Positions 18,681 through 45,529 are shown, counted from the first letter of the stretch. The stretch is 64,000 nucleotides of DNA from Candidatus Eiseniibacteriota bacterium (GCA_963717935.1 CAVQXP010000004.1:416001-480000); one strand, 5' to 3'. Program-made: numbers and translations. The notes: generated by a model from the letters alone, not told the origin.

Positions 18681-18780
18681 GGCCGCGAGGTTAGCAGAGA
18701 GACCGTGCCGGAATCACGCCGCGCGTCGACCGGTAGCCCGCGTCCTTCCGCCCCGCGGGAGCCACCCCCGCCCGTACCGC

Positions 18781-22500: not shown

Positions 22501-22516
22501 CCCGGGCCCCGACGCC

Positions 22517-29279: not shown

Positions 29280-30908
29280 ATGCCGCGCACCCCGCACGTC
29301 GCCTATTTCTGCATGGAGTTCGGGCTGCACGAGTCCTTTCCCATCTACTCGGGGGGGCTCGGCATCCTGGCCGGCGACTTCATCAAATCGGCGGCGGACC
29401 TCAAGTTGCCGGTGATCGGCGTCGGGCTCCTGTGGGAGCACGGGTACTCGGTGCAGCGGGTCGGCCCCGACGGCCAGCCCCACGAGGAGTTCCCCCGCTA
29501 CGACTACTCCTTCCTGCGCGACACCGGCGTGCACGTGCGCGTCAACGTGCGCGGGACCGAGGTGCCCTGCAACGTCTGGGTGACCACGCGGTTCGGGCAC
29601 GTGCCCCTCTACCTGATCCAGCCCACGCGCCCCGCGGACCGCTGGATCACGCACCGGCTCTACGAGGCGGGCACCGACGTGCGCATCGCGCAGGAGATGC
29701 TGCTCGGCATCGGCGGGGCGCGCGCACTCACCTGGCTCGGGATCCCGGTGGCGATCCACCACTTCAACGAGGGCCATGCCGTGTTCGCCGGCGTCGAGAT
29801 GATCGCGTCGCGCATGGAGGGGGGGCTCACCCTCCCCGACGCCTGGGCGGCGACGCGGCGAGAGATCGTCTTCACCACCCACACCCCGGTGAAGGCGGGC
29901 AACGAGGAGCATTCGCTCCAGGATCTCCGCCGGCTGGGCGCGTGCCTGCAACTCTCCGGCGCCGAGATGCGCGCCATCGGCGGCGACCCGTTCAACATGA
30001 CGGTGGCGGGGCTGCGGCTCGCGCGCGCGGCCAACGCGGTCGCCACCCTGCACGGCGAGACGGCACGCATCATGTGGAAGCACATCACCGACGCGGCGCC
30101 CATCATCTCCGTCACGAACGGGGTGCACGTGCCCACCTGGCAATCACCGCTGGTGCGCGCGGCGGCCGACGACCCCGGACGGTTGTGGGATGCGCACGCG
30201 CTCCACCGGGGCGAGTTGCTGGCCGAGATCGAGCGGCGCAAGGGCCTGCAACTCGACCCCGACGGACTCATCATCGGTTTCGCGCGCCGGGCGGCGGGCT
30301 ACAAGCGGCCCGACCTGATCGTGCGGGACGAGAAGCGTCTCGAGGGCCTCCTGGCGCGCGGCGCGCACGTCGTGCTGGCGGGCAAGTCGCACCCCGACGA
30401 CAAGTTCGGCAAGACCCTCATCGCGCGCCTGGTCTCGGCCGAGCGCGCGCACCCGGGGCAGGTCGTCTACCTCGAGAACTACGACATGGCGCTGGGGCGG
30501 ATGCTCACGCGCGGCTGCGACGTGTGGCTCAACAACCCCATCCGCCCGCTCGAAGCGAGCGGCACCTCGGGCATGAAGGCCGCGATGAACGGCGTGCTCA
30601 ACCTGAGCATCCTCGACGGCTGGTGGCCCGAGGGCTGCGAGCACGGCGTGAACGGCTGGGCGATCGGCGACAGCAAGTCGGGCGACGACGCGAGGGACCT
30701 GGCCGCGCTCTACGCGGTGCTCGAGGGCGAGGTGTTGCCGGCCTGGGCCGACCGCGCCCGCTGGGTCGCCATGATGCAGGCCAGCATCGCGATGAGTGTG
30801 GAGAAGTTCTCCTCGGACCGCATGCTGCGCGACTACTTCGCGAAGCTCTACCCGGTGGGCGAGACCCGACCGGTCGAGATGCCCGGGGTGGCGCCCGCGA
30901 ACCGCTGA
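29280..30908 (+). CDS. glgP: Alpha-glucan phosphorylase (GT35), short form
   Basis: AYFCMEFG, YSGGLG, NEGH, TNGVH, ARR..YKR, PLP site EASGTSGMKAAMNG. Confidence 0.95.
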   Translation: MPRTPHVAYFCMEFGLHESFPIYSGGLGILAGDFIKSAADLKLPVIGVGLLWEHGYSVQRVGPDGQPHEEFPRYDYSFLRDTGVHVRVNVRGTEVPCNVWVTTRFGHVPLYLIQPTRPADRWITHRLYEAGTDVRIAQEMLLGIGGARALTWLGIPVAIHHFNEGHAVFAGVEMIASRMEGGLTLPDAWAATRREIVFTTHTPVKAGNEEHSLQDLRRLGACLQLSGAEMRAIGGDPFNMTVAGLRLARAANAVATLHGETARIMWKHITDAAPIISVTNGVHVPTWQSPLVRAAADDPGRLWDAHALHRGELLAEIERRKGLQLDPDGLIIGFARRAAGYKRPDLIVRDEKRLEGLLARGAHVVLAGKSHPDDKFGKTLIARLVSAERAHPGQVVYLENYDMALGRMLTRGCDVWLNNPIRPLEASGTSGMKAAMNGVLNLSILDGWWPEGCEHGVNGWAIGDSKSGDDARDLAALYAVLEGEVLPAWADRARWVAMMQASIAMSVEKFSSDRMLRDYFAKLYPVGETRPVEMPGVAPANR

Positions 30909-31011
30909 GACGCGGCCCCGGGACGAGGCGGCCGGCCCCGCGCGGGCGCCGGCGGGACCTCGTCCGTCTCGGGCTCAACGCGGCAGCCTGCCGGAGATGC
31001 CGGGCGAGACC

Positions 31012-31545
31012 CTACCCGTCCTGTCCCGGGGGGGCCTGGTTCTCCGGCCCGGGCTCCGGCGCGGCCTCCTCCGCCAGCACCGGCAGCCGAGTGAGCGTGG
31101 CGATGTAGTCGTCGGGCAGCTTGTGCGCACGCGCGCCCTTCAGCACCGCATCCATGTAACGACGCGTGGGCGGCGAGGGATTGGCGGTGTGCGCGAGGTA
31201 GGCCATCGCCTTCACGCGGCGCGGCACCGAGCCATCCTCGGGGTGCGTCAACTCGACCCAGACGGGCTCGCGCTCGTAGAGGTTGTGCGCGTCGCCGGGA
31301 CCGCGGAAGCCCTCGCAGCCGTCCAGCGCGCGCAGGTCCTCGTCGCCCAGCTCGTACAACATGCCCCAGACATCCTTGCCGTGCGACAGTTGCAGACTGG
31401 CCACGCCGCCACCCCAGGTCGTCGAGAAGATCGGGAAGATCAGCTTGTGATCGCGCAGCACCGCCATCCCGACCACCTTGTGCGCCGGGCAGCGGGCCTG
31501 CATCTGGTCTGGGTCCAGGTTCGACCCGAACGCGAAATAGAGCAT
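31012..31545 (-). CDS. Gamma-glutamylcyclotransferase family protein
   Basis: MLYFAFGSNL, VWGMLY, LDGCEG, Y..AVLKGA...LPDDY. Confidence 0.88.
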   Translation of the reverse strand: MLYFAFGSNLDPDQMQARCPAHKVVGMAVLRDHKLIFPIFSTTWGGGVASLQLSHGKDVWGMLYELGDEDLRALDGCEGFRGPGDAHNLYEREPVWVELTHPEDGSVPRRVKAMAYLAHTANPSPPTRRYMDAVLKGARAHKLPDDYIATLTRLPVLAEEAAPEPGPENQAPPGQDG

Positions 31546-31697
31546 CTGGCCTCCCAAATCTCGAGCCCGGGTCGAAAGACCCCCGGGCGCGTGTCCGGTC
31601 CAGCATAGTGCATGGGCGGCCGCAGCGACATCGGATTGTTGAGCAGGCTGACGGCTCTCGCCGGGCAGCGGAGGGCACACCGGCCACCGCGCCGCGC

Positions 31698-31861
31698 GGC
31701 GGGCCGGCGGGAGGCAGGTGGAACGCCGGAAGGCGACGCCCGCACCCGGCGGAGACAGGATGTCGGAGCCGGATCAGCGCGGAGGAGCGAGGGAGCGCCA
31801 TGGATTGGCGCGACCGAGCGCTCGCCCGGAGCGCGTTCCGCCTACCTCCCACCGGCCCGCC
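31698..31861. repeat. 29-bp imperfect inverted repeat enclosing 106 bp in a divergent intergenic region
   Basis: 31698-31726 GGCGGGCCGGCGGGAGGCAGGTGGAACGC versus the reverse complement of 31833-31861 GGCGGGCCGGTGGGAGGTAGGCGGAACGC (3 mismatches). Confidence 0.75.
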
Positions 31862-31981
31862 CCCCAAGCCGGGTTTGTCGCGCCCCCGGGCGGTGTCTAT
31901 CATCCAGCCCCTCGGCGGCCCCACGTCCCGCGCCCCCCGGCACGGGAGCCGGCCCCGACCCCGACCCCGGAGAGAGACGCC

Positions 31982-32710
31982 ATGGCAGTGGACTTCCTCG
32001 CTTTCGGCCCCCACCCCGACGACGGCGAGATCGGCTGCGGGGCAGTGCTGCGCAAGATGAAGGCGCTCGGGCACACGACCGGCATCGTGGACATGACGAC
32101 CGGCGACATGGGCTGGGGCACGGTCGAGGAGCGGTTGGCCGAGTGCGACGCGGCGGCGAAGATCCTGCAGTTGGACGTGCGCGAGAACCTGGACCTGGGC
32201 GACAACCGCATCGAGGACACCTTCGAGAACCGTTGCGCGGTGGCGGCGAAGATCCGCAAGCACCGTCCGCAGGTCGTCTTCGCGCCCTACTACAACCTGC
32301 CCATCGGGCGCGGACTGGGGCACAACGACCACTACAAGACCGGGCAGATCGTGGCGAACGCCTACAACCTCGCGCATCTTCGCAAGGCACCGGTCGAGGG
32401 CGAGCCGCACCAGGCGAAGGCCATCTACTTCTACTTCCTGCCACCCGGCACACCACCCACGTTCATCGTGGACGTGAGCGATCACCACGAGGACTGGATC
32501 AAGGCGCTCGAGTGCCACACGAGCCAGTTCGCGAACCCCGGCCGGCCGCGCCCGGTCGCGCTGCCGGCGCCGACCGACGCGTTCATCGCGTTCGCGCGCT
32601 ACTGGGGCTGGCAGATCGGCGTGCGCTACGGGCAGGCGTTCCTCTCGATCGCGCCGCTGCGCGTCGGCGACCCGCTCACGCTCGTGAAGGACGTGGTCCC
32701 GCGACCGTGA
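31982..32710 (+). CDS. PIG-L/LmbE family deacetylase (BshB1-like)
   Basis: HPDDGE motif, HNDH, FIVDVSD, ALECHTSQF. Confidence 0.88.
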   Translation: MAVDFLAFGPHPDDGEIGCGAVLRKMKALGHTTGIVDMTTGDMGWGTVEERLAECDAAAKILQLDVRENLDLGDNRIEDTFENRCAVAAKIRKHRPQVVFAPYYNLPIGRGLGHNDHYKTGQIVANAYNLAHLRKAPVEGEPHQAKAIYFYFLPPGTPPTFIVDVSDHHEDWIKALECHTSQFANPGRPRPVALPAPTDAFIAFARYWGWQIGVRYGQAFLSIAPLRVGDPLTLVKDVVPRP

Positions 32711-33543
32711 CGCCGCGGGCCGCAGGCTCTTCCCCCGCCGCGTCCGCCCGGCGCTTCGGCCCGGCGACCCTCGTCACGCTGCTGCTCGCGGCCGTGCCCG
32801 GCATCGCCGGCTCCGCGGAGGCCCGGGCGACACCGGCGGACACGCGCGTCGCCCGGCTCGCGGACGAGTATCGCGACGGACTCCTCGCGGACCGGCCCGA
32901 CCTGGCCTCGCGTCTCGGCGACCACCGCGGCGACGACCGGCTCGAACCGGTCACGCAGGTCACGCTCGCGCGGGGGGCCGCGCGGCTGCGCTCGCTCGCC
33001 GCGCGGCTCGACTCGATCCCCCGCGCCTCGCTCGCGCCGGTCGCCGCACTCGAGCGCGACGCGCTCGCGGCGCGGATCGCCGCCGCGCGGCACGAACTGG
33101 AGGTGACGCGCCGCTGGGAGCGCGACCCGGCCGCCTACGTCGACCTCGCGGGCGACGCCATCGCGGCGCTCATGAAGCGCGGCGCGGGTCCGACCTGCGC
33201 CCGCACCCGCGCGATGGCGCGGCGGCTCGCGCGCGTGCCCGACGTGCTGCGCGCGGCCCGCATCAACCTGCGCGAGCCGCCGCGCGCGCTCATCGAGGCC
33301 GCTTTGCCGGACTACGAGCGCCTGCTGCGCTTCTACCGCGGGGGGCTCTCCGCGTTCGGCGCGCGCTGCCGCGAGCCGCGCACGCAGGCGGACCTCGCTC
33401 AGGCCGACTCCACGGCGGTGCGGGCGGTCGAGGATTTCCTCGATTACCTGCGCGTGGACCTGCTGCCGCGCGCCACCGGCGCGGAGCGCGGGCCGGGCAT
33501 CCTGCCCGATTCGGCCCGCGGAGCACCCGCGCAAGCCCCGTGA
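32707..33543 (+). CDS. DUF885-like protein, N-terminal half only
   Basis: GTGA overlap; signal peptide; PDLASRLGDHRGDDRL, RRWERDPAAY, RLARVP.VL.AAR.NL. Stops before the expected C-terminal HE..PGH region. Confidence 0.65.
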   Translation: MTPRAAGSSPAASARRFGPATLVTLLLAAVPGIAGSAEARATPADTRVARLADEYRDGLLADRPDLASRLGDHRGDDRLEPVTQVTLARGAARLRSLAARLDSIPRASLAPVAALERDALAARIAAARHELEVTRRWERDPAAYVDLAGDAIAALMKRGAGPTCARTRAMARRLARVPDVLRAARINLREPPRALIEAALPDYERLLRFYRGGLSAFGARCREPRTQADLAQADSTAVRAVEDFLDYLRVDLLPRATGAERGPGILPDSARGAPAQAP

Positions 33544-33674
33544 GCACGACGCGGCCCGTCGCGTCCGCCCTCTTCGTTGACGCTCCCGCTGCATCGCGGC
33601 TAAAGTGCCGTGGCCACACGACCCGATACCATGGATGGTCTGGGCCCGGCGCCCTCGGCGCATCAGGAGGTTCC

Positions 33675-34673
33675 ATGCTGTTGCGCGCCTTGCGCGCCTG
33701 GGGAGCGTTGTTCCTCGTCGCACTGGTGGCCTGGCCGGCCATGACGGCCGACGCCGCCACCCCGGCTTCCGTGGACGCGGCGAAGAAGACCCCGGCGAAA
33801 CGAACCGTCGTCACGGGCACGAAGAAGCCGGTCGGCGCGAAGCAGGCGGTCGCCACGCGCCGCTCCAAGAGCCGGCGCCGCCGTGCCCCGGCCCCGCCAC
33901 GGGGCGGCGTCTACGCCCGCAACGCCGTGGTCATCGATCCCGCGACGGACGAGGTGCTGTTCGAGAAACAGTCGCTGCAGACCGTGCCCATCGCCAGCCT
34001 CACCAAGCTGATGAGCGCGATGGTCTTCCTCGAGCAGAAGCCGGACCTGAGGCGCATGGTCGACGTGACGCGCGAAGAGATCCGTGGCGGCGGCCACACG
34101 CGGCTGTGGAACAGGGAACGCGTGGCCCTCTACGACCTGCTCCACATGAGCCTGATGAGCTCCGACAACGTGGCCACGCGGGTGCTGGCGCGCGAATCCG
34201 GGCTGCCGCCGGGGGAGTTCGTCCCGCGGATGAACGAGAAGGCGCGCGCGATGGGCCTGACGAACACGCACTTCGCCGAGCCGACCGGGCTCGACGAGCG
34301 CAACGTCTCGACCGCGGTGGACGTCGCGCGGCTGCTGCGGGCCGCGGCGGACCACTACCTGATCCGCGAGATCACGACCACGCCGGACTACGTGCTGGTG
34401 GGCGAGTACCCCGGGCGCAGGCGCACCATCGCGCGTTCCCACCAGATCGTGAACACCAACCGGCTGCTGCGCAACAACCGTTACGAGTTCTCGTGCAGCA
34501 AGACCGGTTTCATCAGCCAGTCCGGCTACTGCCTGGCGACCTGGGTGCGCGATCGCGGCCGTGACCTGATCACGGTGGTGCTGGGCGCGCCGACGAATGC
34601 CACGCGCTTCGCCGACGTCGTGCGCCTGGTCCAGCGGACGCAGACTCCGAGCCTCGAGCAGGTCCAGCCCTAG
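33675..34673 (+). CDS. D-alanyl-D-alanine carboxy/endopeptidase (S11, PBP7/PbpG-like)
   Basis: AGGAGG RBS; SxxK (ASLTK), SxN (SSDN), KTG; FAEPTGL. Confidence 0.92.
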   Translation: MLLRALRAWGALFLVALVAWPAMTADAATPASVDAAKKTPAKRTVVTGTKKPVGAKQAVATRRSKSRRRRAPAPPRGGVYARNAVVIDPATDEVLFEKQSLQTVPIASLTKLMSAMVFLEQKPDLRRMVDVTREEIRGGGHTRLWNRERVALYDLLHMSLMSSDNVATRVLARESGLPPGEFVPRMNEKARAMGLTNTHFAEPTGLDERNVSTAVDVARLLRAAADHYLIREITTTPDYVLVGEYPGRRRTIARSHQIVNTNRLLRNNRYEFSCSKTGFISQSGYCLATWVRDRGRDLITVVLGAPTNATRFADVVRLVQRTQTPSLEQVQP

Positions 34674-34685
34674 CCCGGACCGTCG

Positions 34686-35489
34686 ATGACCCGCTGCCGC
34701 GATCCCGTCACCGCCCTGCTGGTCGGGGTCGCGGCGGGGCTCGCGGGCGGACTCTTCGGTGTCGGCGGTGGGATCGTGCTCGTGCCGCTGCTCACCGGCG
34801 TGCTCTGCCTGAGCCAGCACCAGGCGCACGGCACCTCGCTCGCCGCCATCGGTGCCACCGCGCTCGCCTCGCTCTTCGTCTACGGCACTCACGGCAACGT
34901 GGCCTGGGGCACGGCGGCGCTGGTGGGCGGGGCCAGCATGCTCACGGCGCGCTACGGCGCGCGCCTGGCCGCCCGCGCCTCGACGCGCGATCTCAGGCGG
35001 GCGTTCGCGATCTTCCTCGTGCTCGTGGCGCTGCGCCTGCTGTGGAGGGCGCCCGCGGCCACGGGCTCACCGTTCCACGGCCTGCCGCTGGCCGTGGGCT
35101 TCGACCTGCTGCTGGGCGCGGCGGTCGGGGTGCTGGCCGGGTTCATGGGCGTGGGCGGCGGCATCCTCGCGGTGCCCGCCTTCGCGCTGGTGCTCGGGAT
35201 GTCCCAGCCGGCGGCGCAGGGCACCTCGCTCGCCGTGATCCTGCTCACCGCCCCGGCGGGCGCGTTCGAGCATCACCGTCACGGGAACGTGGCCCTGCGG
35301 ATCGTGCCCTGGCTCGCGCTGGGCGCCGCGGCGGGGGGCCCGGCCGGTTCGTGGCTGGCGCAGTGGCTGCCGCAGGCGGTTCTGGCCCGCGCGTTTGCGG
35401 TGTTCCTGCTCGCGAACGTCGTGCAGCTGTGGCTGCGGCCCGGTTCGGGCGGAAGGACCCAGCCGGGCCGCGAAGGGACCGCGAGCTGA
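34686..35489 (+). CDS. TauE/SafE family membrane transporter
   Basis: Two repeats of G..GVGGG...VP and A.GTSLA. Confidence 0.9.
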   Translation: MTRCRDPVTALLVGVAAGLAGGLFGVGGGIVLVPLLTGVLCLSQHQAHGTSLAAIGATALASLFVYGTHGNVAWGTAALVGGASMLTARYGARLAARASTRDLRRAFAIFLVLVALRLLWRAPAATGSPFHGLPLAVGFDLLLGAAVGVLAGFMGVGGGILAVPAFALVLGMSQPAAQGTSLAVILLTAPAGAFEHHRHGNVALRIVPWLALGAAAGGPAGSWLAQWLPQAVLARAFAVFLLANVVQLWLRPGSGGRTQPGREGTAS

Positions 35490-35568
35490 GCCCTGACGCC
35501 TTTGCGAGACACCCCGGCCTTCCGGGGCTCGGAGCCGTTCCCCGCGGCTTCTTGTGGTTCTTTATGGA

Positions 35569-35597
35569 TTGAACATCGCACGGCGATTGTCTATGAT
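35569..35597 (+). promoter_or_regulatory. sigma70 promoter, cassette A
   Basis: TTGAAC-N17-TATGAT. The -35 box is identical and the -10 box differs by one base in copy B, while the spacer has diverged. Confidence 0.7.
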
Positions 35598-35621
35598 TCT
35601 TCCGGTTTAAGTGAATTGCGC

Positions 35622-35757
35622 GTTGCCAGAGAGCAGCGCCATCGGGGTCGCCCGTCCTCGACACGGGCACGAGTCCACCGTGGGAACCGCAACCAGAGTC
35701 CATCCCCCAGGCAAGTCGGGACAAGGGTCAGGGGTCCACACGACATCACAGTCCGCG
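35622..35757 (+). ncRNA. Conserved 5' leader element, copy A (unknown class)
   Basis: 78 of 81 nt identical to copy B over 35622-35702; hairpins GTTGC/GCAGC and GCCCGT/ACGGGC; four GTCCAC-like motifs. Confidence 0.5.
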
Positions 35758-35779
35758 CACTTCTCAAGGAGACCCCTCA

Positions 35780-36705
35780 ATGCGCAAGACTGCTATCACG
35801 CTCCTCGCATCCGGACTCATGGTGACGCTCCTCGTCGTGGTCGTGCCGGCGCTGGCCGGCCTCGGCGGGCACGATGAGACCATGGAGACCTACGCCACCG
35901 GCTGGAACGCCGCGACCGGTTCCGTCGCAACACCCGGTACCGTGTGCGCCGGGATCACGGGCACGCACCTGCTCATGACCGAGGTGGGCTGGCGTGGGCT
36001 GAACAGCAAGGCCCTGGCCGATTCGGTCGAGTTCATCGAGATCTACAACCCGACCACGGAGCCCATCGACCTCACGAACTACTACGTGTCGGACGTCAAC
36101 GGCTACTCCGCGTTGCCCGTGGCCGGGACGATCGACCTCGCCGGCACCTCGACGGACTTCGGGATGAGGTTCCCGAGCGGGGCGACGATCGGACCGGGCG
36201 CCGTCAAGGTGATCGCGATCGACGGTGGCCGCTGGAAGCGCGGCGTCGGCACCGACGCCGACTTCATGTTGTTCAACGCCGGCGGCGGCGCGACCACGGC
36301 CCTCCCGATGGTGGACGTCCACGTCAACGGCGGGACGACCTATCCGACCTACGGCGAATTGCTCAACACCGGCGAGTTCGTGTGGCTGTTCTCCTGGAAC
36401 GGCCTCGACGACCTGGTCTGTGACGTCGACCTGGTGGCCTGGGGGTCGCAGCCGGGCGACAACTGCCCGTTGAAGAAGACCGCGGCCACGTGCCAGGACG
36501 GGCCGGATGCGGACGTCACTGCCAGCTGCTACAGGGGGATCTTGGCCCCATCGTGACCCTCGCGACGCCCAGCAGCGGCTCTGGCACCCGCCAGCGCACC
36601 GGCCCCGAGGCCGGGGAGACGGCGACGGGCGGCAACGGCTGCCTCGACATCGCGGTCTCCGCGATCCACAGCACGTGGGGCAGCGTGAAGGCCATCTACC
36701 GGTAG
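35780..36705 (+). CDS. Secreted lamin-tail-domain protein with C-terminal STWGSVKAIYR tail; one frameshift near 36533-36538
   Basis: Signal peptide; LTD motif LLMTEV..EFIEIYNPTTEPIDLTNYYVSD. The first frame stops at 36556; another frame continues GDLGPIV...STWGSVKAIYR* to 36705. Confidence 0.8.
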
Positions 36706-36742
36706 GCCCCCCGCGCGGGTGACCGCGACGGGAGCACCTCAA

Positions 36743-36774
36743 ACGAAGGCCCGGCGGCGCCGCCGGGCCTTCGT
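36743..36774 (+). terminator. Terminator-like hairpin, cassette A
   Basis: 14-bp stem ACGAAGGCCCGGCG/CGCCGGGCCTTCGT with loop GCGC. Confidence 0.75.
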
Positions 36775-37021
36775 GCTGGCGTGCGGGCGGGTCCCGGCCG
36801 CCGCCCGGCCGGCGCGGCGGCTTCCGCAAGTGGTTCCGGGCCCGCGTAGTTGCGGCATCCCCGCCCGCGAACGTCATGCGATTGTGGACACGGTCGGCCC
36901 CGGGCGGAAAGACCCAGCCGGACCGTGAGGAAACGGCGAGCTGAGCCTTGACGTCGCGCGAAACGCCACGGCTTTCGGGGGTTCCGGGCCGTCGTTCGCC
37001 GGTCTTTCCGCGGCTTTGGGC

Positions 37022-37050
37022 TTGAACATCACGCGAGGATTCCCTATGCT
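37022..37050 (+). promoter_or_regulatory. sigma70 promoter, cassette B
   Basis: TTGAAC-N17-TATGCT. Confidence 0.7.
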
Positions 37051-37074
37051 TATCGCGGTTCAAATGAATTAAGG

Positions 37075-37209
37075 GTTGCCAGAGAGCAACGCCATCGGGG
37101 CCGCCCGTCCTCGACACGGGCACGAGTCCACCGTGGGAACCGCAGCCAGAGTCCACCCTCCAGGCGGATCGGGACGAAGGTCAGGGTCCACACGACACCA
37201 TGGTCCACG
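37075..37209 (+). ncRNA. Conserved 5' leader element, copy B
   Basis: Near-identical to copy A; GTCCAC at 37126, 37151, 37186 and 37203. Confidence 0.5.
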
Positions 37210-37230
37210 CACCACAGGGAGACCCCCGAC

Positions 37231-37998
37231 ATGCGTAAGATTGTTATCACTCTCGTCGCACTCAGCCTCGTCGCGGCCACGTCGGCGTTCGCCGCCACGC
37301 TCCTGAGCGAAAGCTTCAGCTACCCCGACGGGGGCCTCGTCCCGAACGGTGGCTGGGCGGTCTACAGCGGCACCACCACCGACATCCAGGTCGTCAGCGG
37401 CCGCGCCAACGGCTGGGGCCCGAATGCGATCGACGACCACGTGGCGTTCACGCCCCAGACGAACACGGTCTCGACCTACGCCTGCTTCGAAGTGAGCATC
37501 CCGGCCGTCGTGGGCGCGCCCAAGCCCATCTACTTCGCGGGGCTGAAGGATGCCGGCACTTCGCTCATGGTCGCGCGCGTCTACGTGCTGCCGATCGGCG
37601 AGGGCTGGACGTTCGGAATCTCGACGACCAGCACCAGCACGGCGTTCGGCGTGACGCCGTGGACGTCGACGCTTTCCTACGATACGCCCTACAACCTCGC
37701 CATCAAGTACGACGCGGTGGCGCAGTCCGCGACGCTTTGGGTGAATCCGGTGTCGGAGGCCAGCCCGAGCGTCACGGATGTGAACACGTACTACTCGTCG
37801 ATCGCGGTTTCCACGTTCTTCCTCCGCCAGAGCGCCTCGGCCGCCACGTTCCCCGCCCCGGGTTACCCGGGAACGGTTGACTGGGGTTTCTCGGTGGACA
37901 ACGTCGGTGTCGGCACGACGTTCGACGAAGCCTGTGTCGCCGGACCGACCCCGACCAACGCGAGCACCTGGGGCAAGCTGAAGTCCCTGTACCGGTAA
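37231..37998 (+). CDS. Secreted beta-rich protein with C-terminal STWGKLKSLYR tail
   Basis: Signal peptide MRKIVITLVALSLVAATSAFA; mature N-terminus ATLLSESFSYPDG; ends PTPTNASTWGKLKSLYR. Confidence 0.85.
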   Translation: MRKIVITLVALSLVAATSAFAATLLSESFSYPDGGLVPNGGWAVYSGTTTDIQVVSGRANGWGPNAIDDHVAFTPQTNTVSTYACFEVSIPAVVGAPKPIYFAGLKDAGTSLMVARVYVLPIGEGWTFGISTTSTSTAFGVTPWTSTLSYDTPYNLAIKYDAVAQSATLWVNPVSEASPSVTDVNTYYSSIAVSTFFLRQSASAATFPAPGYPGTVDWGFSVDNVGVGTTFDEACVAGPTPTNASTWGKLKSLYR

Positions 37999-38033
37999 CC
38001 CGTCCGCGGGTGACCGCCCGAGTACCGCATCCA

Positions 38034-38065
38034 ACGAAGGCCCGGCGGAAACGCCGGGCCTTCGT
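38034..38065 (+). terminator. Terminator-like hairpin, cassette B
   Basis: The same 14-bp stem as 36743-36774 with a GAAA tetraloop. Confidence 0.75.
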
Positions 38066-38225
38066 GCTGGGGGCGGGCGTGGGTCGCAGGCGCCGCCGGG
38101 TGGTAGAATCATGGCTGGATCCACGAACCGAAGTCGTCTGCCACACTCCCGACAGGGGGCCCGCCGTCCTGACCCCGCCCTGCCGAGTCTCCCCGAACCT
38201 CACCCCCGAAAGGCGGGCAGGAAGC

Positions 38226-40973
38226 ATGAAGAAGTGGGCCGGTCTACTCCTCGCTGCAGCACTCATCCTCCCGGCGCTCGTGCCCGCGCAGGCCCGGTCG
38301 GCCATCATCATCTCCGAGCTGTGCGATCCCAATCTCAACTACCTGACGGACCGCTTCATCGAGGTCGCCAACGCCGGCACGGACACGGTGGACCTCGCGG
38401 GTTGGACGTTGATCGCCGTGGGGAACAGCGTCGACATCCAGACCTGGCCCCTCTCGGGCCTGATCGCTCCCGGCCAGGCCAGGGTCTGCGGTAACTCGAC
38501 GACCGTCACCGGTTTCACGGTGGATTTCCCGAGCGCCACCTGGGCGACCAACAACGCCACCTGGAACGGCAAGGTCGGTGACGGCGCGAGGCTGGTGAAC
38601 GCGAGCGCGGTGACGGTGGACTACGCCGTCGTGCCCGGGACCGTCTTCGAGAACATGGACCTGGTCCGCAATCCGAGCATCTACGTGCCGAACACCGCGT
38701 TCACGGCCGCCGAATGGACCGCGACCGCCGTCACGCTGGCCACCGACGCGAGCCCCGGGACGCACGTCCTGAACCCGCGGCCGCCCGGACCGTCCATCAA
38801 GCTGGTCGTCACCGATCCGACGATCCCGCTGGCCGGCGCGGGCGTGAACGTCCAGGCCGCCGTGACCGATTCGGCCGCGACCATCACCTCCGTCACCCTG
38901 CTCTGGGGCACCAGCTCGGGCTCGCTCTCCAACTCGATCCCCATGCCGTGGCTCTCGGACAGCACCTACCGCACCGCGAGCCAGATCCCGGGTCAGGCCG
39001 AGGGCGTGACGATCTACTACAAGGTCCAGGCCAGCGACGCCTCGGTGACCAACCTCTCCGAGTTGAAGAGCTACGCGCTGGACTACGTCAGGACCATCCA
39101 CCAGATCCAGGGCGAGGTCTCGAGCTCCCCCTACAACGGCCTCGGGGTCATCACGCACGGCATCGTCACGGCGGTCTACCCGTCCTACTTCGTGGTGCAG
39201 GACGGGCCCGGTGCGTGGAACGGCCTCTGGGTGCGCAGCAGCGCGACGCCGGCGCGCGGCGACTCGGTCACCGTGCGCGGACTGGTGACGGAGAGCGACG
39301 TGCAGGGCCTCGCCGGCAACACGCTCCTGACGAGCGGGCTCGTGTTGAGCGACGCGCCGGGCGCCACGCTTCCCGCGACCGCCGTCGTCTCCACCGCCAC
39401 CGCGTCGACGGAGGCGTACGAAGGCGTCCTGGTCAAGGCCGCGAACGCGGTCTGCACGGACGCCGCCCTGGGCTCCGGGCAGTGGCTCGTGAACGACGGC
39501 AGCGGCGCCAGCCGCGTGGGCCCGCTGGGCTACGCCTTCACCCCGACCCTCGGCACGACCTACGACGCCACGGGGCCCGTCAACTACAGCGGCGGCGCCT
39601 TCATGATCGAGCCCCGGGACGCCGGCGACGTCGTCTGGGTGGCGGATCACTCCGCACCCGTCGTGGTCGCGCTCTTCGAGGAGAGCGACTCGACCCTGCT
39701 CGTGACCTTCTCCGAGCCGCTCGAGCAGGCCAGCGCCGAGACGCCCGCCCACTACGCCGTCGGCGCGCTGCCCGCGACGGCCGCCGCGTTCGACCCCGCC
39801 CATCCGGCCGAGGTCCTGGTCACCGTGCCCGGCATCCCCGCGGGCCCGGTCACCATCGTCGCCACCGGCGTGGCCGACCTGTACGCGAACGCCACCGCGG
39901 GCGCGACCTGGACCTTCAACTTCGTGGACACGCGCATCCCCGCGGGCTACTACGACAGCGCCCTCGGGTTGCGGGGCACCGCGCTGCGGGCCGCGCTGCA
40001 CGAGATCATCAAGAACCACGCCTCGCAGAGCTACGACTACGCGCTGATCGCCTTCCAGACCACCGACGTCAAGCCCAACCGCAAGGTCTGGGACGTCTAC
40101 TCGGACATCCCGGGCGGCACCCCGCCCTACGAGTACGACTTCGGGCAATCGGGCGGCGGGACCACGGAGGGCGACGGCTGGAACCGTGAGCACTCGTGGC
40201 CGCAGTCCTGGTTCGGCGGTTCGCTGCCGATGTACTCCGACCTGTGGATCCTGTATCCGACCGACGCCAAGGTGAACGAGTACCGCAGCAGCTGGCCGTA
40301 CGGCGACGTCTCCTCCGCGAGCATCACGTCGCTGAACGGGAGCCAGGTCGGACCGTGCTCCGACGACGGTTACACCGGGACCGCGTTCGAGCCGATCGAC
40401 GCCTTCAAGGGCGACCTGGCCCGCAGCTACTTCTACGTGTCCACCCGCTACTACACCGAGGACGCCGCCTGGCCGGGAAGCCCGGCCACGAGCGGCGCGG
40501 ACCTGCTGCCCTGGGCGAACACGGCCTACCTCGCCTGGCACTACAACGACCCCGTGAGCCGCAAGGAACAGTTGCGCAACGGCGCCATCTACGTGATCCA
40601 GCACAACCGCAATCCGTTCGTGGATTACCCCCAGTTCGCGGCGCTGCTCTTCGATTCGACCTCGAGCGCCGCCGTGGGCGACGAGCCGGCCGTGGCGTTC
40701 CGCCTGCACCAGAACGCGCCGAACCCGTTCCACCCGGCGACCACGATCCGTTTCGACCTGCCCCGCCGGGCGCCGGTCAGCCTGCGGATCTACGACGTGG
40801 CGGGCCGGTTGGTGCGCAGCCTGGTGGCGGGGAGCGCGCTGGAGGCGGGCCGCCACGAAGCGGCCTGGGACGGCCGGAGCGAGTCCGGGCAGACCGTCGG
40901 CGCGGGGCTCTACTTCTACCGCCTGCAGGCCGGAGCGTTCAGCGAGACGCGGCGGATGGTGTTCACGAACTGA
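38226..40973 (+). CDS. Secreted endonuclease I (EndA/NucM/Bsn-like) with LTD, Ig-like and OB-fold domains and an FlgD-Ig/T9SS-type CTD
   Basis: Signal peptide; LTD (IIISEL..RFIEVAN); TIHQIQG OB-fold; WNREHSWPQSW, KGDLARSYFY, NRNPFVD; CTD QNAPNPF..IYDVAGRLV..GLYFYRL. Confidence 0.9.
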   Translation: MKKWAGLLLAAALILPALVPAQARSAIIISELCDPNLNYLTDRFIEVANAGTDTVDLAGWTLIAVGNSVDIQTWPLSGLIAPGQARVCGNSTTVTGFTVDFPSATWATNNATWNGKVGDGARLVNASAVTVDYAVVPGTVFENMDLVRNPSIYVPNTAFTAAEWTATAVTLATDASPGTHVLNPRPPGPSIKLVVTDPTIPLAGAGVNVQAAVTDSAATITSVTLLWGTSSGSLSNSIPMPWLSDSTYRTASQIPGQAEGVTIYYKVQASDASVTNLSELKSYALDYVRTIHQIQGEVSSSPYNGLGVITHGIVTAVYPSYFVVQDGPGAWNGLWVRSSATPARGDSVTVRGLVTESDVQGLAGNTLLTSGLVLSDAPGATLPATAVVSTATASTEAYEGVLVKAANAVCTDAALGSGQWLVNDGSGASRVGPLGYAFTPTLGTTYDATGPVNYSGGAFMIEPRDAGDVVWVADHSAPVVVALFEESDSTLLVTFSEPLEQASAETPAHYAVGALPATAAAFDPAHPAEVLVTVPGIPAGPVTIVATGVADLYANATAGATWTFNFVDTRIPAGYYDSALGLRGTALRAALHEIIKNHASQSYDYALIAFQTTDVKPNRKVWDVYSDIPGGTPPYEYDFGQSGGGTTEGDGWNREHSWPQSWFGGSLPMYSDLWILYPTDAKVNEYRSSWPYGDVSSASITSLNGSQVGPCSDDGYTGTAFEPIDAFKGDLARSYFYVSTRYYTEDAAWPGSPATSGADLLPWANTAYLAWHYNDPVSRKEQLRNGAIYVIQHNRNPFVDYPQFAALLFDSTSSAAVGDEPAVAFRLHQNAPNPFHPATTIRFDLPRRAPVSLRIYDVAGRLVRSLVAGSALEAGRHEAAWDGRSESGQTVGAGLYFYRLQAGAFSETRRMVFTN

Positions 40974-40994
40974 CCGGGACGCCAGGGCAGCGCA

Positions 40995-41037
40995 GACGGC
41001 GGGGGCGGTTGGAGGGTCTCTCCAGCCGCCCCCCGTC
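40995..41037 (+). terminator. Hairpin after the nuclease gene
   Basis: GGGGCGGTTGGAG / CTCCAGCCGCCCC stem with flanking GACGG/CCGTC. Confidence 0.6.
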
Positions 41038-41272
41038 GCAGCGCCCCGGCCACGCCCGTGACACCTCCGCGGTCGGGGAGCCGCGCCATTCCCGCGCGGG
41101 GCCCACGGGGCGACACCGGCTGCTATCTATGCGCCCGCCGGCCGTGCCGGCTTCATCCTTCCCGGCACGGGACCGGCCGGAAGCCCGGTGATCTGCCGGT
41201 CATCCTCCCGACGGGACCATCCCACAACACGTTAGACCGGCTGAACGGCCGCGGCATCCCAAAGCCTGGCCC

Positions 41273-41288
41273 CGGCAGACGGCTTGCA
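41273..41288 (+). promoter_or_regulatory. Candidate sigma54 promoter
   Basis: CGGCAGACGGCTTGCA (GG-N10-GC, TTGCA) about 95 nt upstream of the Lon-like gene. Confidence 0.5.
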
Positions 41289-41383
41289 TATCGCAAGTGA
41301 CGGGCACCGCCCCGTCGAGGGTCCCGGAGGTTCTCTCCTCGACCCTGAGAACCCTGCGCCCACAGCCCAGCGACGGAGGAGAC

Positions 41384-43229
41384 ATGCCCAGACACCTGCG
41401 CTCCCCGGCCAACCCGAAGGGCCCCGCCCGCGGCATGCGCGCCTCCGCCCTGCCCGAACGCGCGAGCCCGGAGGGGCCGCAGTCGGCCCGGTTGACCGAA
41501 GTCGCAGGCCTGCCGGCCGAGGTGTCGCGCCAGGCGCAGCGCGAGATGGACCGGCTGCGCCGCCTTCCGCCCGGCTCGCCCGAGGCGGGCCAGGCACGCA
41601 CCTACCTGCAGTGGCTCTGGGCCCTGCCGTGGGAGCGCTCGGCCCCCGAGGACGCGAACCTGAAGCGGGTCGAGGCGACGCTCAACCGCGAACACTTCGG
41701 CCTGGCCAAGGCCAAGGAGCGCATCATCGAGTACCTCGCGGTGCGCCGGCTCAAGCCCGATCTGCCCGGCCCCGCGTTGTGCCTGGTCGGCCCGCCGGGG
41801 ACCGGCAAGTCCTCGCTCGCCGCCGCCGTGGCGCACGCGCTGCACCGGCCCTTCGTGCGGCTGGGCGTGTCCGGCGCGGGCGAGATCGGCGGCCTGCGTG
41901 GCGTGCCGCGCGCGCTGCCGGGCGCCCAGCCCGGCAAGATCGTCAGGGCGCTGCGCGAGGCCGGCGTGCGCAACCCCGTGATCATGATCGACGGGGTGGA
42001 CCGGCTCGCCGGAGAGACCGGGCTCGGCGCGTTCGAGACCCTGCTCGAGTTGCTCGACCCCGCCAGCAGTGCGCGCTTCATCGACCAGTACCTGGGGCTG
42101 CCGCTCGACCTGTCGCACGCCGTGCTGCTGCTGTGCGCCAACAACGCCGAACTGGTGCCCGAGCCGCTCCAGGACCGCCTCGAATTGATCGAGGTGCCCG
42201 GCTACGGCGAGACCGAGAAGCTCAGGGTCGCGCGCCGCTTCCTGGTCCCGCGTCTGCTGCGCGAGCACGGGCTCGGCCCGGGCGACCTGCGGCTGACCGA
42301 CGGGGCCCTTCGCGCCATCGTTCGCCAGTACACGCTCGAGGCCGGAGTGCGCGGGCTCGCGCGCCAGATCGCGACCGTGTGCCGCAAGGTGGCGCGTCGC
42401 CCGCGCGACCGGCGACGCGAAGCGGCACGTCGTGACGCCGCGCCGGCTCGAGCGTTACCTGGGCCATCGGCTGTTCACGCTCGAGACCGCGGGCAAGAAC
42501 GACGAGGTCGGCGTGGCCACGGGGCTCGCCTGGACCTCGACCGGCGGCGAGATCCTCACCGTCGAGGCGCTCAAGATGCCCGGCGAGGGCCGCGTCGTCA
42601 CCACCGGCCAGCTCGGCGAGGTGATGAAGGAGTCCGTGCAGGCCGCGCACTCCTACGTGCGTTCGCGCGCCGACGTGCTGCAGATCGACGCGCAGGCGTT
42701 CGCCGACTACGACATCCACATCCACTTCCCCGCAGCCGGCGTGCCCAAGGACGGCCCCTCGGCGGGTATCACCGTGGGGCTCGTGATCGCCTCGGTGCTG
42801 AGCGACCGGCCCATCCGCCACGACGTGGCGATGACCGGCGAGGTGAGCCTGCGCGGCAAGGTGCTCGCCGTGGGCGGCCTGCGCGACAAGGCGCTGGCCG
42901 CGCACCGCGCCGGCTTCCGCGCCATGCTCTACCCGGCGATCAACGAGAAGGACCTCGAGGACGTCCCGTCCGACGTGCGCGACCGGCTCGAGATGGTGCC
43001 GGTGGCGACCATGGACGACGTGTTCGCCGTGGCCCTGCACCGCGTCATCGTGCCGCGCCGGGTCGGCGACGAATACGTCATCGAGGTGAACGAGGACGAC
43101 GTGCTGCCGGGCACGGAGGGCGAGGACGGCGCGGAGGCCGTGGAGAACGCGGAGGCGTCCGCCGCGGAGACCGCGCCGGAGCCGCCACCCCGGCGCAGGC
43201 TGCTGGGGCCGGACGGCAACGAGCTGTAG
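41384..43229 (+). CDS. lon: Lon-type protease (S16) without N-terminal domain; one frameshift at 42400-42402
   Basis: GGAGGAG RBS; LPW, HFGLAKAKERI, GPPGTGKS, YTLEAGVR; protease GLAWT, PKDGPSAG, AMTGEVSLRG, GGLRDK. Removing one C at 42400-42402 joins the two ORFs (about 614 aa). Confidence 0.85.
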
Positions 43230-43460
43230 CGGGGTGGACGGAGAGGACCGCGCCCGGGACGGCGGCCCGGCGGCACGTTAGGCGCCGGACGGAGTGCCCG
43301 GTAGAATGGGATCGTGAGACTCGCGGCACGGGCTCCCCGCTTCCCGCCCGGCGATCCCGCGTCCGGGCCCGGGCCGGCGACCCCGAGGGAGACCGTGCGG
43401 AGCCTTCTCGCCGCCAGCGCCTGACTCGACTCTGCCGATTCCCATCGTCCCGGAGAAGCC

Positions 43461-44240
43461 ATGTTCCGTGACAAGAAGGTCGTCGTCGTCATGCCCGCCT
43501 ACAATTCCGCGCGGACGCTGCGGCGGACCCACGAGGAGGTCCTGGCCCAGGAGGTCGTGGACCTCGTCATCGTGGTGGATGACGCGAGCCACGACGACAC
43601 CGTGGCCGTCGCCCGCACGCTGCCCAGGACCCGGGTCGAGATCCATCCGCAGAACCGGGGCTACGGCGCCAACCAGAAGACCTCGTACCGCCTCGCGCTC
43701 GAACAGGGCGCCGACATCGTGATCATGGTGCACCCCGACTACCAGTACACGCCGAAGCTCATCCCGGCGATGGTCGCCCTGATCGGAAACGGCCTCTACC
43801 CCTGCGTCCTGGGCTCGCGCATCCTGGGCGGCCACGCCATCGGTGGTGGCATGCCCTGGTGGCGCTACATCGCGAACCGCTTCCTCACCCTGGCCGAGAA
43901 CTTCCTGCTGGGCTCCAAGCTGTCCGAGTTTCACACCGGCTACCGGGCCTTCTCGCGGGACCTGCTCGAGCGCCTGCCGCTGGAGCGGAACTCGGACGAC
44001 TTCGTCTTCGACAACCAGGTGCTCGCGCAGGTCCTCTGGCTCGGGGACCAGATCGCCGAGGTGTCCTGCCCGACGAGTTACTTCGCCGAGGCCTCTTCGA
44101 TCAACTTCGTCCGCTCGGTGCGCTACGGCTTCGGCTGCCTCGCCACCGGGCTGGCCTTCCGTCTGGCCCGGTGGGGGCTGCGCTCGTCCTCGCTCTTCCC
44201 CGGTCCCCCGGGGCGGCGTGGCGCGCGCGAAGCCCGCTGA
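43461..44240 (+). CDS. Glycosyltransferase family 2 (polyprenol-phosphate sugar synthase-like)
   Basis: VMPAYN, VVDDAS.D, NRGYG, HPDYQY, GSR, HTGYRAF. Confidence 0.92.
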   Translation: MFRDKKVVVVMPAYNSARTLRRTHEEVLAQEVVDLVIVVDDASHDDTVAVARTLPRTRVEIHPQNRGYGANQKTSYRLALEQGADIVIMVHPDYQYTPKLIPAMVALIGNGLYPCVLGSRILGGHAIGGGMPWWRYIANRFLTLAENFLLGSKLSEFHTGYRAFSRDLLERLPLERNSDDFVFDNQVLAQVLWLGDQIAEVSCPTSYFAEASSINFVRSVRYGFGCLATGLAFRLARWGLRSSSLFPGPPGRRGAREAR

Positions 44241-44309
44241 CCGGCCGGCGCCGCTTCCCCGGCCACGACCGGGGTCGCCCGAACGACCGGCCGCGCGCGA
44301 CGGCGGACA

Positions 44310-45529
44310 TCAGGTAGAGCGCGACGCCGTGGCGCCCGACCTCGCGTAGTGCTCGCGCAGGCGGCGCGCGGCCTCGACCACGTCTTCCTTCCGCGTCGCG
44401 AGCGAGAACCGCACGCGCTCCGGGTATGGGCCGAAGGCGGTGCCGGGCAGCACCGCGACGCCCAATTCGAGCCACTCGCGCACCAGGTCCCACACCGTGC
44501 GCCGCTCGAGCGCGGCCGAGACGTCGGCGAAGACGTAGAACGCCCCGGCGGGCCTCGGCGCGCGCACGGCGTGCTGGCCCTCGAGCCCGGCGAACAGCGT
44601 GTCGCGTCGCGCCTGGTAGGCGCGCCGCATCGTGTCCACCACGCCCTGCGGGCCCCGCAGCGCCGCGAGACCGGCGATCTGCACCGCGGGGAACACGCCG
44701 TAGGTGGTGAGCGCGCAGAGCGTCGGCCCCAGCACCGGGCGCAGCGCCGGCGGCGAGACCGCGTAGCCCGAGGCGCCAGCCGGTCATGGCGTAGGACTTG
44801 GAGAAGAGAAGACGGTCACGGTGCGCGCGGACATGCCGGGCAGCGCCGCGATGCTCACGTGCGTGGCGTCGTCGAAGAGGATGTGCTCGTAGGCCTCGTC
44901 GCTCACCACCCACAGGTCGTGCTCGCGCGCCACTTCCGCGATGGCCTCGAGCTGCTCGTGCGTGAGCACCGCGCCGGTCGGGTTGTTGGGCGTGTTGACG
45001 TAGAGCCCGCGCGTCTCGGGCCGCAGGCTCGCGCGCAAGCCGGGTCGCGAGACCCGCGGGCGCGAGGGTGTCCTCCATGAGGTCGAGGTACGCCGGCACG
45101 GCGCGCCAGCGCGCGCCTTCGACCAGGCCGAGCATGCGCGGCAGCATCATCCAGTAGGGCGAGAGCAGCAGGACCTCGTCGCCGGGCGAGAGCAGCGCCT
45201 GGAAGACCATCGAGAGCGCATGCGTCGCGCCCGCGGTGATGACCACGTCCTCGGGATGGCAGGCAGATGCCGTTCTCGAGCGAGAGCTTCTCGGCCAGCG
45301 CCACGCGCAGCGGCAGCGCGCCGCCGGGATTCGCGTAGTGGGTCTCGCCCGCGCGCGCCGCGGCAGCGAGCGCCTCGACGATGTGAGGTGGCGTGTCGAA
45401 ATCGGGCTCGCCGCGCTCCAGGTGCAGGATGTGCTGCCCTTCGGCCTCGCGCACCGCCGCGGCGGTCATCACCTGGGCCAGGTCGGAAGCCGTACGGAAC
45501 ACCTCGCGGTCGGCGACGAGCCGGGGCAT
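44310..45529 (-). pseudogene. Class I/II PLP aminotransferase split by 4 frameshifts (probably sequence errors)
   Basis: GEPDFDTP, NTPNNPTG, SDEAY and FSKSYAMTGWRLG lie in successive frames; shifts near 45265, 45037, 44806 and 44768. Confidence 0.85.

Follow-up and report, generated by a model that had tools for sequence, protein, structure and literature searches.

Tandem units with shared ends and unrelated bodies at a conserved tauE-linked locus of Candidatus Eiseniibacteriota

In Streptococcus pyogenes, emm and emm-like genes form tandem sets of exported-protein genes with conserved ends, the leader and signal peptide on one side and the C-terminal sorting or anchor sequence on the other, around variable middles; such sets probably originate in duplication followed by recombination between genes. 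For Helicobacter pylori, one published account (PMC4552749) describes babA, babB, and babC as having near-identical N- and C-terminal regions and a divergent middle, with different paralogs at the same chromosomal loci in different strains and with chimeras produced when homologous recombination near the 5' and 3' ends leads to gene conversion. Here we describe two tandem units downstream of tauE in a 64,000-nucleotide stretch of DNA from Candidatus Eiseniibacteriota (the window, G000:C4:416001-480000). G000 denotes the genome of the window, 3,017,715 bases in 5 contigs with ~71% G+C, and other G-numbers denote related genomes. Both units have conserved ends, extending into non-coding DNA, around protein bodies that show no relationship to each other, and the same slot holds different bodies in related genomes. 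The bodies have probably been exchanged between fixed ends by ordinary recombination, that is, by gene conversion or unequal crossing-over.

An initial annotation, made from the sequence of the window, had described two head-to-tail units with common ends, and both direct repeats and BLASTN searches of the whole genome confirm that description. The features that define the duplication are the following, with coordinates counted from the first base of the window.

34686..35489, + strand: tauE, sulfite-exporter family membrane protein (Pfam TauE, E 1e-48); synteny with the S11 peptidase gene upstream is kept in relatives
35314..36770, + strand: unit 1, from the tauE 3' end to the terminator (repeat spacing 1453-1455; pairwise alignment)
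36771..38071, + strand: unit 2, from a tauE remnant to the terminator (repeats, pairwise alignment, BLASTN)
36840..36941, + strand: tauE 3'-end remnant, the last 34 codons (tblastn, 56% amino acid identity, E 1e-5)

The final ~170 nt of tauE serve as the beginning of unit 1. Direct repeats pair 35566-35733 with 37019-37186 (168 nt, 85%, spacing 1453), 35384-35498 with 36839-36953 (115 nt, 76%, spacing 1455), and 36714-36779 with 38005-38070 (66 nt, 82%, spacing 1291). By BLASTN, the units have in common a 5' block that begins inside tauE (430 nt, 77.4%, E 6e-86) and a 3' block (120 nt, 77.5%, E 3.4e-19), and their leaders match over 211 nt (83.4%, E 1.7e-57). No third copy of the leader was found by BLASTN in the 3,017,715-base genome; a genome-wide cassette system is ruled out, the leader being present only twice in G000. 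The tauE-like segment of unit 2, matching the last 34 residues of TauE, is a real remnant. The smaller shared elements listed at the outset are likewise all present in the sequence: TTGAAC-N17-TATG(A/C)T, the first codons, the last 11 codons (here called the tag), the post-stop motif CGCGGGTGACCGC, and an identical 14-bp stem.

Between these ends lie the passengers, for which we distinguish three types: A, the gene 2 type; B, a second lamin-tail type; and C, the gene 1 type.

35780..36556, + strand: gene 1, frame a, signal peptide and lamin-tail-domain passenger (type C), 258 aa, ending in a premature TGA (Pfam LTD)
37231..37998, + strand: gene 2 (type A), signal peptide, concanavalin-A-like (ConA-like) passenger, Cys and Pro/Thr linker, tag STWGKLKSLYR

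The body of gene 1 scores above the gathering cut-off of Pfam model PF00932 (LTD), with 37.8 bits versus 34.3 and E 2.7e-9. It has 64 database relatives, of which we name P0134, 'lamin tail domain-containing protein [Candidatus Eisenbacteria bacterium]'. Gene 2 has no Pfam match at E <= 0.1, and NCBIfam returns nothing for either gene at E <= 1. The database homologs of gene 2 number 265, all without names, and a relative from Candidatus Eisenbacteria is P0070 (NCBI). An AlphaFold2 model of gene 2, made with 33 sequences (pLDDT 84.9, pTM 0.81), has 5ly8, 1g9f, and 5mqr as its top Foldseek matches, with E 8e-8 to 4e-7 and TM 0.45-0.54. The fold matches in PDB are a phage Dit carbohydrate-binding module, soybean agglutinin, and a sialidase lectin domain, and they include the Aap lectin domain as well; 462 PDB chains match at E <= 0.001, with no lamin-tail structure among the top 50 listed. 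As modeled, the passenger of gene 2 is a domain of the concanavalin-A-like lectin/glucanase fold. The model begins with a helix at residues 3-13, and its last ~15 residues form a low-confidence linker, with pLDDT < 50 before the tag, followed by a short helix (248-254) that is not packed on the domain.

Profiles of the three passenger types, with signal peptides and tails removed, were compared by hhalign. Type A aligns to type C with 0.4% probability and to type B with 0.2%, while B and C align at 58% (E 1e-4), as expected for two lamin-tail families. Gene 2 is not a PF00932 member, given the missing Pfam match, the hhalign values of 0.2-0.4%, and a fold search that leads to ConA-like lectins. 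The earlier claim that the bodies are unrelated is thus upheld by the profile comparison and by the assignment of one body to LTD by Pfam and the other to a ConA-like lectin fold; neither profiles nor fold search shows them to be diverged homologs along their length. The signal peptides, by comparison, are near-identical: both genes start with a Sec-type sequence, MRKxxITLxAL...AFA as read from the sequence, in which MRK and a hydrophobic core are followed by a terminal A-F-A/A-L-A.

The pair of units occupies a slot with recognizable neighbors on both sides.

33540-34673: S11 D-Ala-D-Ala carboxypeptidase, directly 5' of tauE in gene order
38226..40973, + strand: secreted protein of 915 residues with LTD, Endonuclease I, and a FlgD_ig or type IX secretion system (T9SS)-type C-terminal domain (Pfam, NCBIfam); the right-hand anchor of the slot

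The C-terminus of the nuclease protein matches FlgD_ig (E 1e-10) and TIGR04183. TauE with an S11 peptidase upstream occurs in 20 of 31 genomes (E <= 1e-40), and the genes after tauE were read in 13 of those genomes and in G022. Homologs of gene 2 occur in 22 of 41 related genomes and homologs of gene 1 in 13 of 41, the closest of the latter (62%) in G039, from another family. G026, flagged as unpublished, is counted only in the tallies for gene 2 homologs, gene 1 homologs, TauE, and the tag. In every genome read, tauE is followed by 1-3 tagged genes with near-same signal peptides, MRK(T)xI(A/T)LLAL..., and with the following passengers in order.

G000: C, A
G001, G002, G003, G006, G010: B
G004 (single-contig genome): B, B, a TPR-type gene on the minus strand, A
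G005: B, the minus-strand gene seen in G004, B
G007, G009, G016, G022: A
G017: A, A, C
G013: a B-like gene, further off and in opposite orientation

The gene 2 homologs that follow tauE in G007, G009, G016, and G022 are full-length; others lie 3' of a more distant tauE in G028 and G035, and across the genomes compared the gene 2 type is the usual occupant of the tauE site. All of the B genes tested (3/3) match Pfam LTD. A fourth body type, without a Pfam match, follows a related leader in G158. A minus-strand gene of ~730 residues lies between units in G004 (L045) and G005 (L046) and is absent there in G000, where its best match (52%) is elsewhere on C4, at 1928436-1930034.

The nuclease protein, with 79-80% amino acid identity in G004 and G005, is encoded directly 3' of the last unit in both. 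The tauE remnant, too, precedes the nuclease-adjoining unit in these independent assemblies; compared with the genome's own tauE end, it shows 72% over 268 nt in G000, 70% over 77 nt in G004, and 80.5% over 113 nt in G005. Because the remnant stands before the nuclease-adjoining unit in all three genomes, the slot is bounded on both sides within single contigs, and because it is common to all three, the duplication predates their split.

Comparison across this bounded slot, in 60-nt windows, locates the breaks in similarity. Between G000 and G005, which differ in passenger, identity is 65-73% in the remnant and spacer and 87-92% in the leader; it is 83% in the start-codon window, and the printed alignment stays alike up to the Ala-Phe-Ala cleavage site. 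It then falls in the body to 23-53%, which is chance level in such G+C-rich DNA. At the tag it rises again to 60-67%, and beyond, starting with the stop codon and reaching into the nuclease gene, it is 75-97%. G000 and its same-genus relative G004, both with A bodies, give the same profile, the bodies being 40-45% identical as proteins versus 85% for TauE and 79% for the nuclease. G007 (A) compared with G006 and G003 (B) is 80-98% identical to ~50 nt past the ATG and then drops to chance level, with 70-83% in the tail where the terminator class is common. Different passengers at the orthologous tauE-linked locus, proposed in the initial annotation as the test of exchange, are what we find, with breaks at the signal-peptide end and at the tag. 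The region 38071-38225, 5' of the nuclease gene, shows 85-97% identity in the G000/G005 comparison, above most nearby coding sequence, and may be another conserved leader or regulatory region.

Among the leaders of G007 (A), G003 (B), and G006 (B), identity is 81-88%, and the leader of G000 unit 2 (A) is 82-83% identical to those of B units in G004 and G005 versus 72% to that of G007 (A). In the identity matrix, the leaders cluster according to lineage and not according to passenger. There are two classes of terminator, and these too cut across the passenger types. The true tauE tail and spacer of G000 are 72%/69% identical to the remnants versus 57%/55% to the tauE tails of G005/G004, a pattern that suggests a past crossover between tauE and the remnant. 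Other contigs of G007 and G003 hold additional B genes whose signal peptide and tag are the same, and these are possible donors. Public sequencing runs offer fragments only: one short, low-depth contig has the 3' part of the leader joined to a gene 1-type body (92%), and a 408-nt contig of run X2 (depth 3.4) joins the end of gene 1 (36661-36709), through 7 letters, to a tauE-like piece (35327-35432), without the two hairpins. The X2 contig may represent a variant unit junction in a related population.

The shared 5' end of each unit comprises a predicted promoter and a long leader.

35569..35597, + strand: sigma-70-like promoter of unit 1, TTGAAC-N17-TATGAT (promoter scan 9/12)
37022..37050, + strand: promoter-like site of unit 2, TTGAAC-N17-TATGCT (8/12 by count, just under the scan threshold; aligns with the unit 1 promoter)
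35612..35751, + strand: leader 1 core, a conserved candidate structured 5' untranslated region (UTR) element (covariance model, 139.2 bits)
37065..37203, + strand: leader 2 core (covariance model, 154.5 bits)

The promoter scan found 2 sites versus 0.1 expected in shuffles, and the -35 and -10 hexamers hold their position in most rows of an alignment of 14 upstream regions from relatives; transcription would start from these predicted promoters. The resulting 5' UTR would be ~180 nt in each unit, with a conserved ~140-nt core, much better conserved than its surroundings, and then a GGAG ribosome-binding site. Scanning 30000-45000, leaders included, against Rfam 15 gave no match at E <= 1. RNAalifold alone yields a weak consensus for the leaders (-13.5 kcal/mol), and a structure of 22 pairs in 5 helices was assembled from RNAalifold and one hairpin recognized by eye. 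Its pairing across 13 sequences amounts to 86%, versus 32-49% when partners are slid by 1-3 columns, and 9 pairs change on both sides, which 0 of 500 shuffles matched. A covariance model built from 12 sequences matches in 14 of 89 genomes of the family. Six matches fall outside the training set: G004 unit 1, left out of training and matched weakly (29.6 bits), G123, G019, G119, G003:C85, and, partially, G024. Those in G123, G019, G119, and G003:C85 sit 21-26 nt 5' of tagged genes that start MRKT../MKKM.., a recurrence that extends to further genera, and the partial match in G024 has no tagged open reading frame (ORF) downstream. Across 18 distinct leader sequences, 89.8% of cells pair and 12 of the 22 pairs change on both sides, figures to be read with the structure being derived from the same related sequences and the last alignment being fitted to the model. 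By BLASTN across the family, full-length leader copies occur only in the genus of G000 and in G010, and the covariance model reached four further places. We regard the leader as a candidate for a new cis-regulatory 5' UTR element, one that is probably structured. A coding upstream ORF is ruled out by indels among relatives that are not multiples of three and by an in-frame stop in G007.

Two smaller features of the leader were observed. Leader 2 has four copies of the hexamer GTCCAC within 83 nt (37126-37208), and leader 1 (35673-35756) has two, together with two one-base variants; the hexamer's genome average is 0.68 per kb per strand, and there are only 7 clusters of four within 180 nt genome-wide. 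These clusters may be a protein-binding repeat. In addition, CGCA 5' of the ribosome-binding site pairs with UGCG of the start region (AUGCG) in 10-13 of 13 leaders by RNAalifold (35750-35785, 37205-37236); the pairing is invariant, and a conserved CCCC follows GGAG. Such pairing may occlude the start site.

At the 3' end, the initial annotation missed a frameshift in gene 1.

36534..36538, + strand: frameshift site, a run of five G, one base missing versus full-length relatives
36538..36705, + strand: gene 1, frame b, the C-terminal ~55 residues, ending STWGSVKAIYR-stop (ORF 36490-36705; aligned to relatives)

Its account of the last 11 codons holds in that STWGSVKAIYR is present in unit 1, but the sequence is out of frame with the gene 1 ORF of 35780-36556. 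The relative P0122 (84% identical, 306 aa) and the G039 ortholog read straight through '...SCYRADLGPIVTLATPS...', and 26 of the 28 next-best database relatives of gene 1 are 305-323 aa long. Since full-length relatives read through in frame, a single nucleotide has been lost at or beside the run of G. No public-run contig among those found spans 36534-36538. The break is probably an assembly indel, as judged from two other genes in the window that are also frame-broken. The Lon protease gene (41297-43229, + strand) is split by a frameshift, with AAA+/lid in 41297-~42400 and Lon_C in a different frame, that of 42432-43229, and no homopolymer lies at the site. A class I/II aminotransferase gene (44104-45246, - strand) is divided over two or more frames, with profile positions 70-121 on one ORF and 253-360 on another. 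Together the two suggest indel errors in the assembly.

The tag itself is far more widespread than the locus. The pattern [ST]WGx[ILVM]Kx[LIF]YR-stop ends 14 ORFs in a six-frame scan of G000, in each case with exactly one residue (R) before the stop; these ORFs have signal-peptide-like N-termini and diverse bodies. Gene 2 ends in STWGKLKSLYR-stop, and gene 1 in STWGSVKAIYR-stop only in the shifted frame. Searched for as a back-translated DNA pattern, the tag turns up in 183 of the 206 genomes from the phylum, mostly 10-35 times in each, and a reversed control pattern has 0 matches. By family, it is found in 88 of 88 genomes of the window's own family and in 21 of 41 of one divergent family. 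The 3' coding similarity of the two units is, on this pattern survey, a phylum-wide tag signal, WGxΦKxΦYR, not a trait of the locus. A limited literature search found no published account of the tag, and Pfam and NCBIfam are also empty; from these searches, the tag is a candidate for an undescribed C-terminal sorting signal. The T9SS C-terminal models Por_Secre_tail, FlgD_ig, and CHU_C do not match gene 1 or gene 2. Sorting by the tag would be in keeping with its position, and the label of surface protein in the initial annotation is an inference. Tagged genes also occur in rows elsewhere: outside the window, G000:C4:933985-936876 holds three in a row, two close paralogs and one different, and there are arrays of five in G043:C8 and seven in G055:C3.

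Two hairpins follow the stop codon of each unit.

36714..36727, + strand: post-stop mini-hairpin CGCGG-GTGA-CCGCG of unit 1, with a GNRA-type loop (fold)
36714-36726 (unit 1) and 38005-38017 (unit 2), + strand: post-stop motif, a 5-bp hairpin with loop GUGA
36743..36774, + strand: 14-bp GC hairpin of unit 1, presumed terminator (fold z -5.1)
38034..38065, + strand: 14-bp GC hairpin of unit 2, presumed terminator (fold z -4.8; arms identical to unit 1)

In G004, G005, G007, and G003, the mini-hairpin is retained behind genes of types A, B, and C. Its exact 13-mer occurs at only two sites in the genome on the window strand, and once more, as the reverse complement, on contig C2. Transcription would terminate at the GC hairpins.

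Together these features suggest how the units may work and change. Each runs from a predicted promoter through 5' UTR, GGAG, Sec signal peptide, passenger, Cys and Pro/Thr linker, and tag to mini-hairpin and GC hairpin, with passengers of unrelated binding-type folds, the lamin-tail Ig-like domain in gene 1 and the ConA-like lectin fold in gene 2. The ends common to all units of the family, ~250 nt of leader and signal peptide on the left and ~100 nt of tag and hairpins on the right, would be a substrate for general homologous recombination. Gene conversion, from paralogs or from the incoming DNA of relatives, would replace passengers, and unequal crossing-over would add or delete them, in either case leaving expression, export, and sorting undisturbed. 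That close relatives hold different passengers in one slot would follow from recombination between the common ends. A Pfam scan of 41 ORFs of the window, chosen by codon G+C, found no recombinase, integrase, or transposase family, in agreement with the earlier remark that no recombinase is visible; homologous recombination or unequal crossing-over is thus the likely route, not a dedicated machine. The plug-in system proposed in the initial annotation therefore stands in part: fixed 5' and 3' modules, unrelated bodies, and slot polymorphism are seen, but dedicated machinery is not borne out, and homologous recombination suffices. The explanation as a whole, which we consider probable though well short of certain, is that the tandem pair represents old paralogous units, that they stand where S11 peptidase, tauE, units, and extracellular nuclease make up a conserved locus, and that the bodies of the units are exchanged in this way.

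Other histories would also produce shared ends around different bodies. A longer ancestral array might have undergone birth and death, its units kept alike at the ends by functional constraint while lineages lost different members and no body moved. Arrays of 2-3 units at the locus (G004, G017) and, elsewhere in the phylum, of as many as 7 tagged genes (G055:C3) fit such a history, as do a tauE duplication older than the split of G000, G004, and G005 and the partial hiding of the locus by contig ends in G003 and G006. We nevertheless consider it unlikely, if well worth weighing: constraint alone fails to account for non-coding similarity of 87-92% that abuts bodies at chance level in a bounded slot, and neither lineage-clustered leaders across passenger types nor the duplicated tauE fragment and the remnant-type tail of the true tauE are explained. 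Moreover, loss via crossing-over at repeated ends is recombination too, and differs only in direction, loss versus replacement. Much less probable still is a dedicated cassette system, in which a site-specific recombinase encoded elsewhere would act on the post-stop hairpin or the leader in integron-like fashion. The absence of integrase and recombinase families from the 41 ORFs, the presence of a promoter in each unit, unlike integron cassettes, the position of breakpoints inside coding sequence (signal-peptide end, tag) and not at the hairpin, and a module identity that is graded from 65% to 97% without a fixed core-site boundary all speak against it, while the mini-hairpin, kept after all three passenger types in several genomes and with its exact 13-mer confined on the window strand to the two unit sites (the reverse complement once, on C2), is what such a system would have in its favor.

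Two other explanations have almost nothing left to them. That the bodies are highly diverged homologs, left by a simple tandem duplication, strains belief: both are beta-rich and their flanks are plainly duplicated, but hhalign gives only 0.4%, an Ig-like LTD of ~110 residues is set against a ConA-like jelly roll of ~200 residues, and each body has its own full-length family, with 265 and 64 database relatives. The non-coding flanks, moreover, are still 77-85% alike, leaving too little time for coding divergence beyond recognition. It is just as improbable that unit 2 is a mis-joined or duplicated piece of contig. The assembly does appear to hold indel errors, in the broken Lon and aminotransferase genes; the two copies, however, are only 77-85% identical, a contig from a public run that may be the source sample spans the remnant and leader 2 (36778-37131) with 5 differences in 354 nt (98.6%), and the same arrangement of remnant, unit, and nuclease is found in G004, in a single contig, and in G005. 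For these reasons, the unit pair is not an assembly duplication.

Several points weigh against exchange by recombination, or against parts of the scheme built on it. All of the evidence is comparative, and no recombination event itself has been seen. The bounded-slot pattern could also be the outcome of loss and not exchange, if crossing-over between repeated ends removed different units from an ancestral multi-unit array; replacement and such differential loss would alike proceed through these conserved ends. The contigs of G003 and G006 end just after the first unit, and further units may be hidden. G000 has no donor copy of either body elsewhere (1 match each), and the gene 1 type is found in 0 of 7 same-genus genomes, so that its arrival needs outside DNA or many losses. 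As for the ends, the leaders fold no better than shuffled sequence (z +0.83 and +0.10), and the structure proposed for them draws on covariation in a small, related sequence set. The GC hairpins have no U-tract, and a terminator scan, which needs a T run, does not call them. The frameshift in gene 1, if real, would leave unit 1 with a protein lacking the tag, or with a pseudogene.

What exchange between fixed ends would mean for these bacteria can be put forward only tentatively, and we hold it somewhat doubtful: Eisenbacteria may keep a plug-and-play chassis for expression and export, with a promoter, a structured regulatory leader RNA new to description, and a fixed signal peptide at one end and an undescribed sorting tag and two hairpins at the other, in which binding domains of unrelated kinds (lectin-like ones, lamin-tail ones of two types, and one or more others) are swapped often enough to vary among strains, giving a rapidly changeable extracellular binding set beside a nuclease under one regulatory signal. 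An uncultured phylum would then have a way to diversify exported proteins in which whole folded domains are swapped between ends complete for transcription, translation, export, and sorting. The recombination breakpoints would also delimit the undescribed sorting tag, separating the end of the passenger from the start of the signal, and a candidate new cis-regulatory RNA would be added that is tied to the tagged gene family. The units could provide a natural, ready-made layout with which to express and export foreign domains in bacteria of this kind. If, instead, swapping is only slow birth and death of paralogs, this is an ordinary gene-family story in an unusual organism.

Elsewhere in the window, 52997-55156 (- strand) encodes a second T9SS-type cargo, an M6-like peptidase that contains an InlB B-repeat-like domain and has a C-terminal domain of the FlgD_ig type. 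At 18508-24157 (+ strand), an FHA-GAF-SpoIIE phosphatase comes directly after a Ser/Thr kinase of 1330 residues with PD40 repeats, in what looks like a kinase/phosphatase pair.

Set beside described systems, individual parts of the units have partial counterparts. Like cis-regulatory 5' UTR RNAs in Rfam, the leader is long and conserved, lies 3' of the promoter and 5' of the ribosome-binding site, and has compensatory changes in its helices; unlike them, it has no Rfam match, folds no better than shuffles, and was found only in 14 of 89 genomes of one family. The tag, behind a flexible linker, occupies the sorting-signal position of T9SS C-terminal domains, but those are folded domains of ~70-90 residues, and their models match the neighboring nuclease and not genes 1 and 2. 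Integron cassettes, too, have exchangeable bodies in a fixed platform and an imperfect inverted repeat at the unit 3' end, whereas the units here have promoters, breakpoints in coding sequence, and no attC-type site, and no integrase was found in the 41 ORFs scanned. An integron cassette array is ruled out by the units' own promoters, by the coding-sequence junctions, and by the lack of a tyrosine-recombinase integrase among those ORFs.

The closest parallels are in the organization of whole genes. The emm genes, unlike the units here, have an LPXTG sortase signal with a membrane-spanning tail, coiled-coil middles, and a Gram-positive host. In the bab genes, the middles are diverged homologs of one adhesin fold and the loci are dispersed, whereas the units here are tandem and carry unrelated folds; the ends here, furthermore, take in the non-coding promoter, 5' UTR, and terminator, and the coding part of the 3' end amounts to no more than the ~10-residue tag. 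The likeness to bab is nonetheless twofold: the units also have conserved ends and a divergent middle, by pairwise alignment, BLASTN, and hhalign, and different members occupy one locus in related genomes (G000/G004/G005 and G007/G006/G003), with the junctions in the conserved ends.

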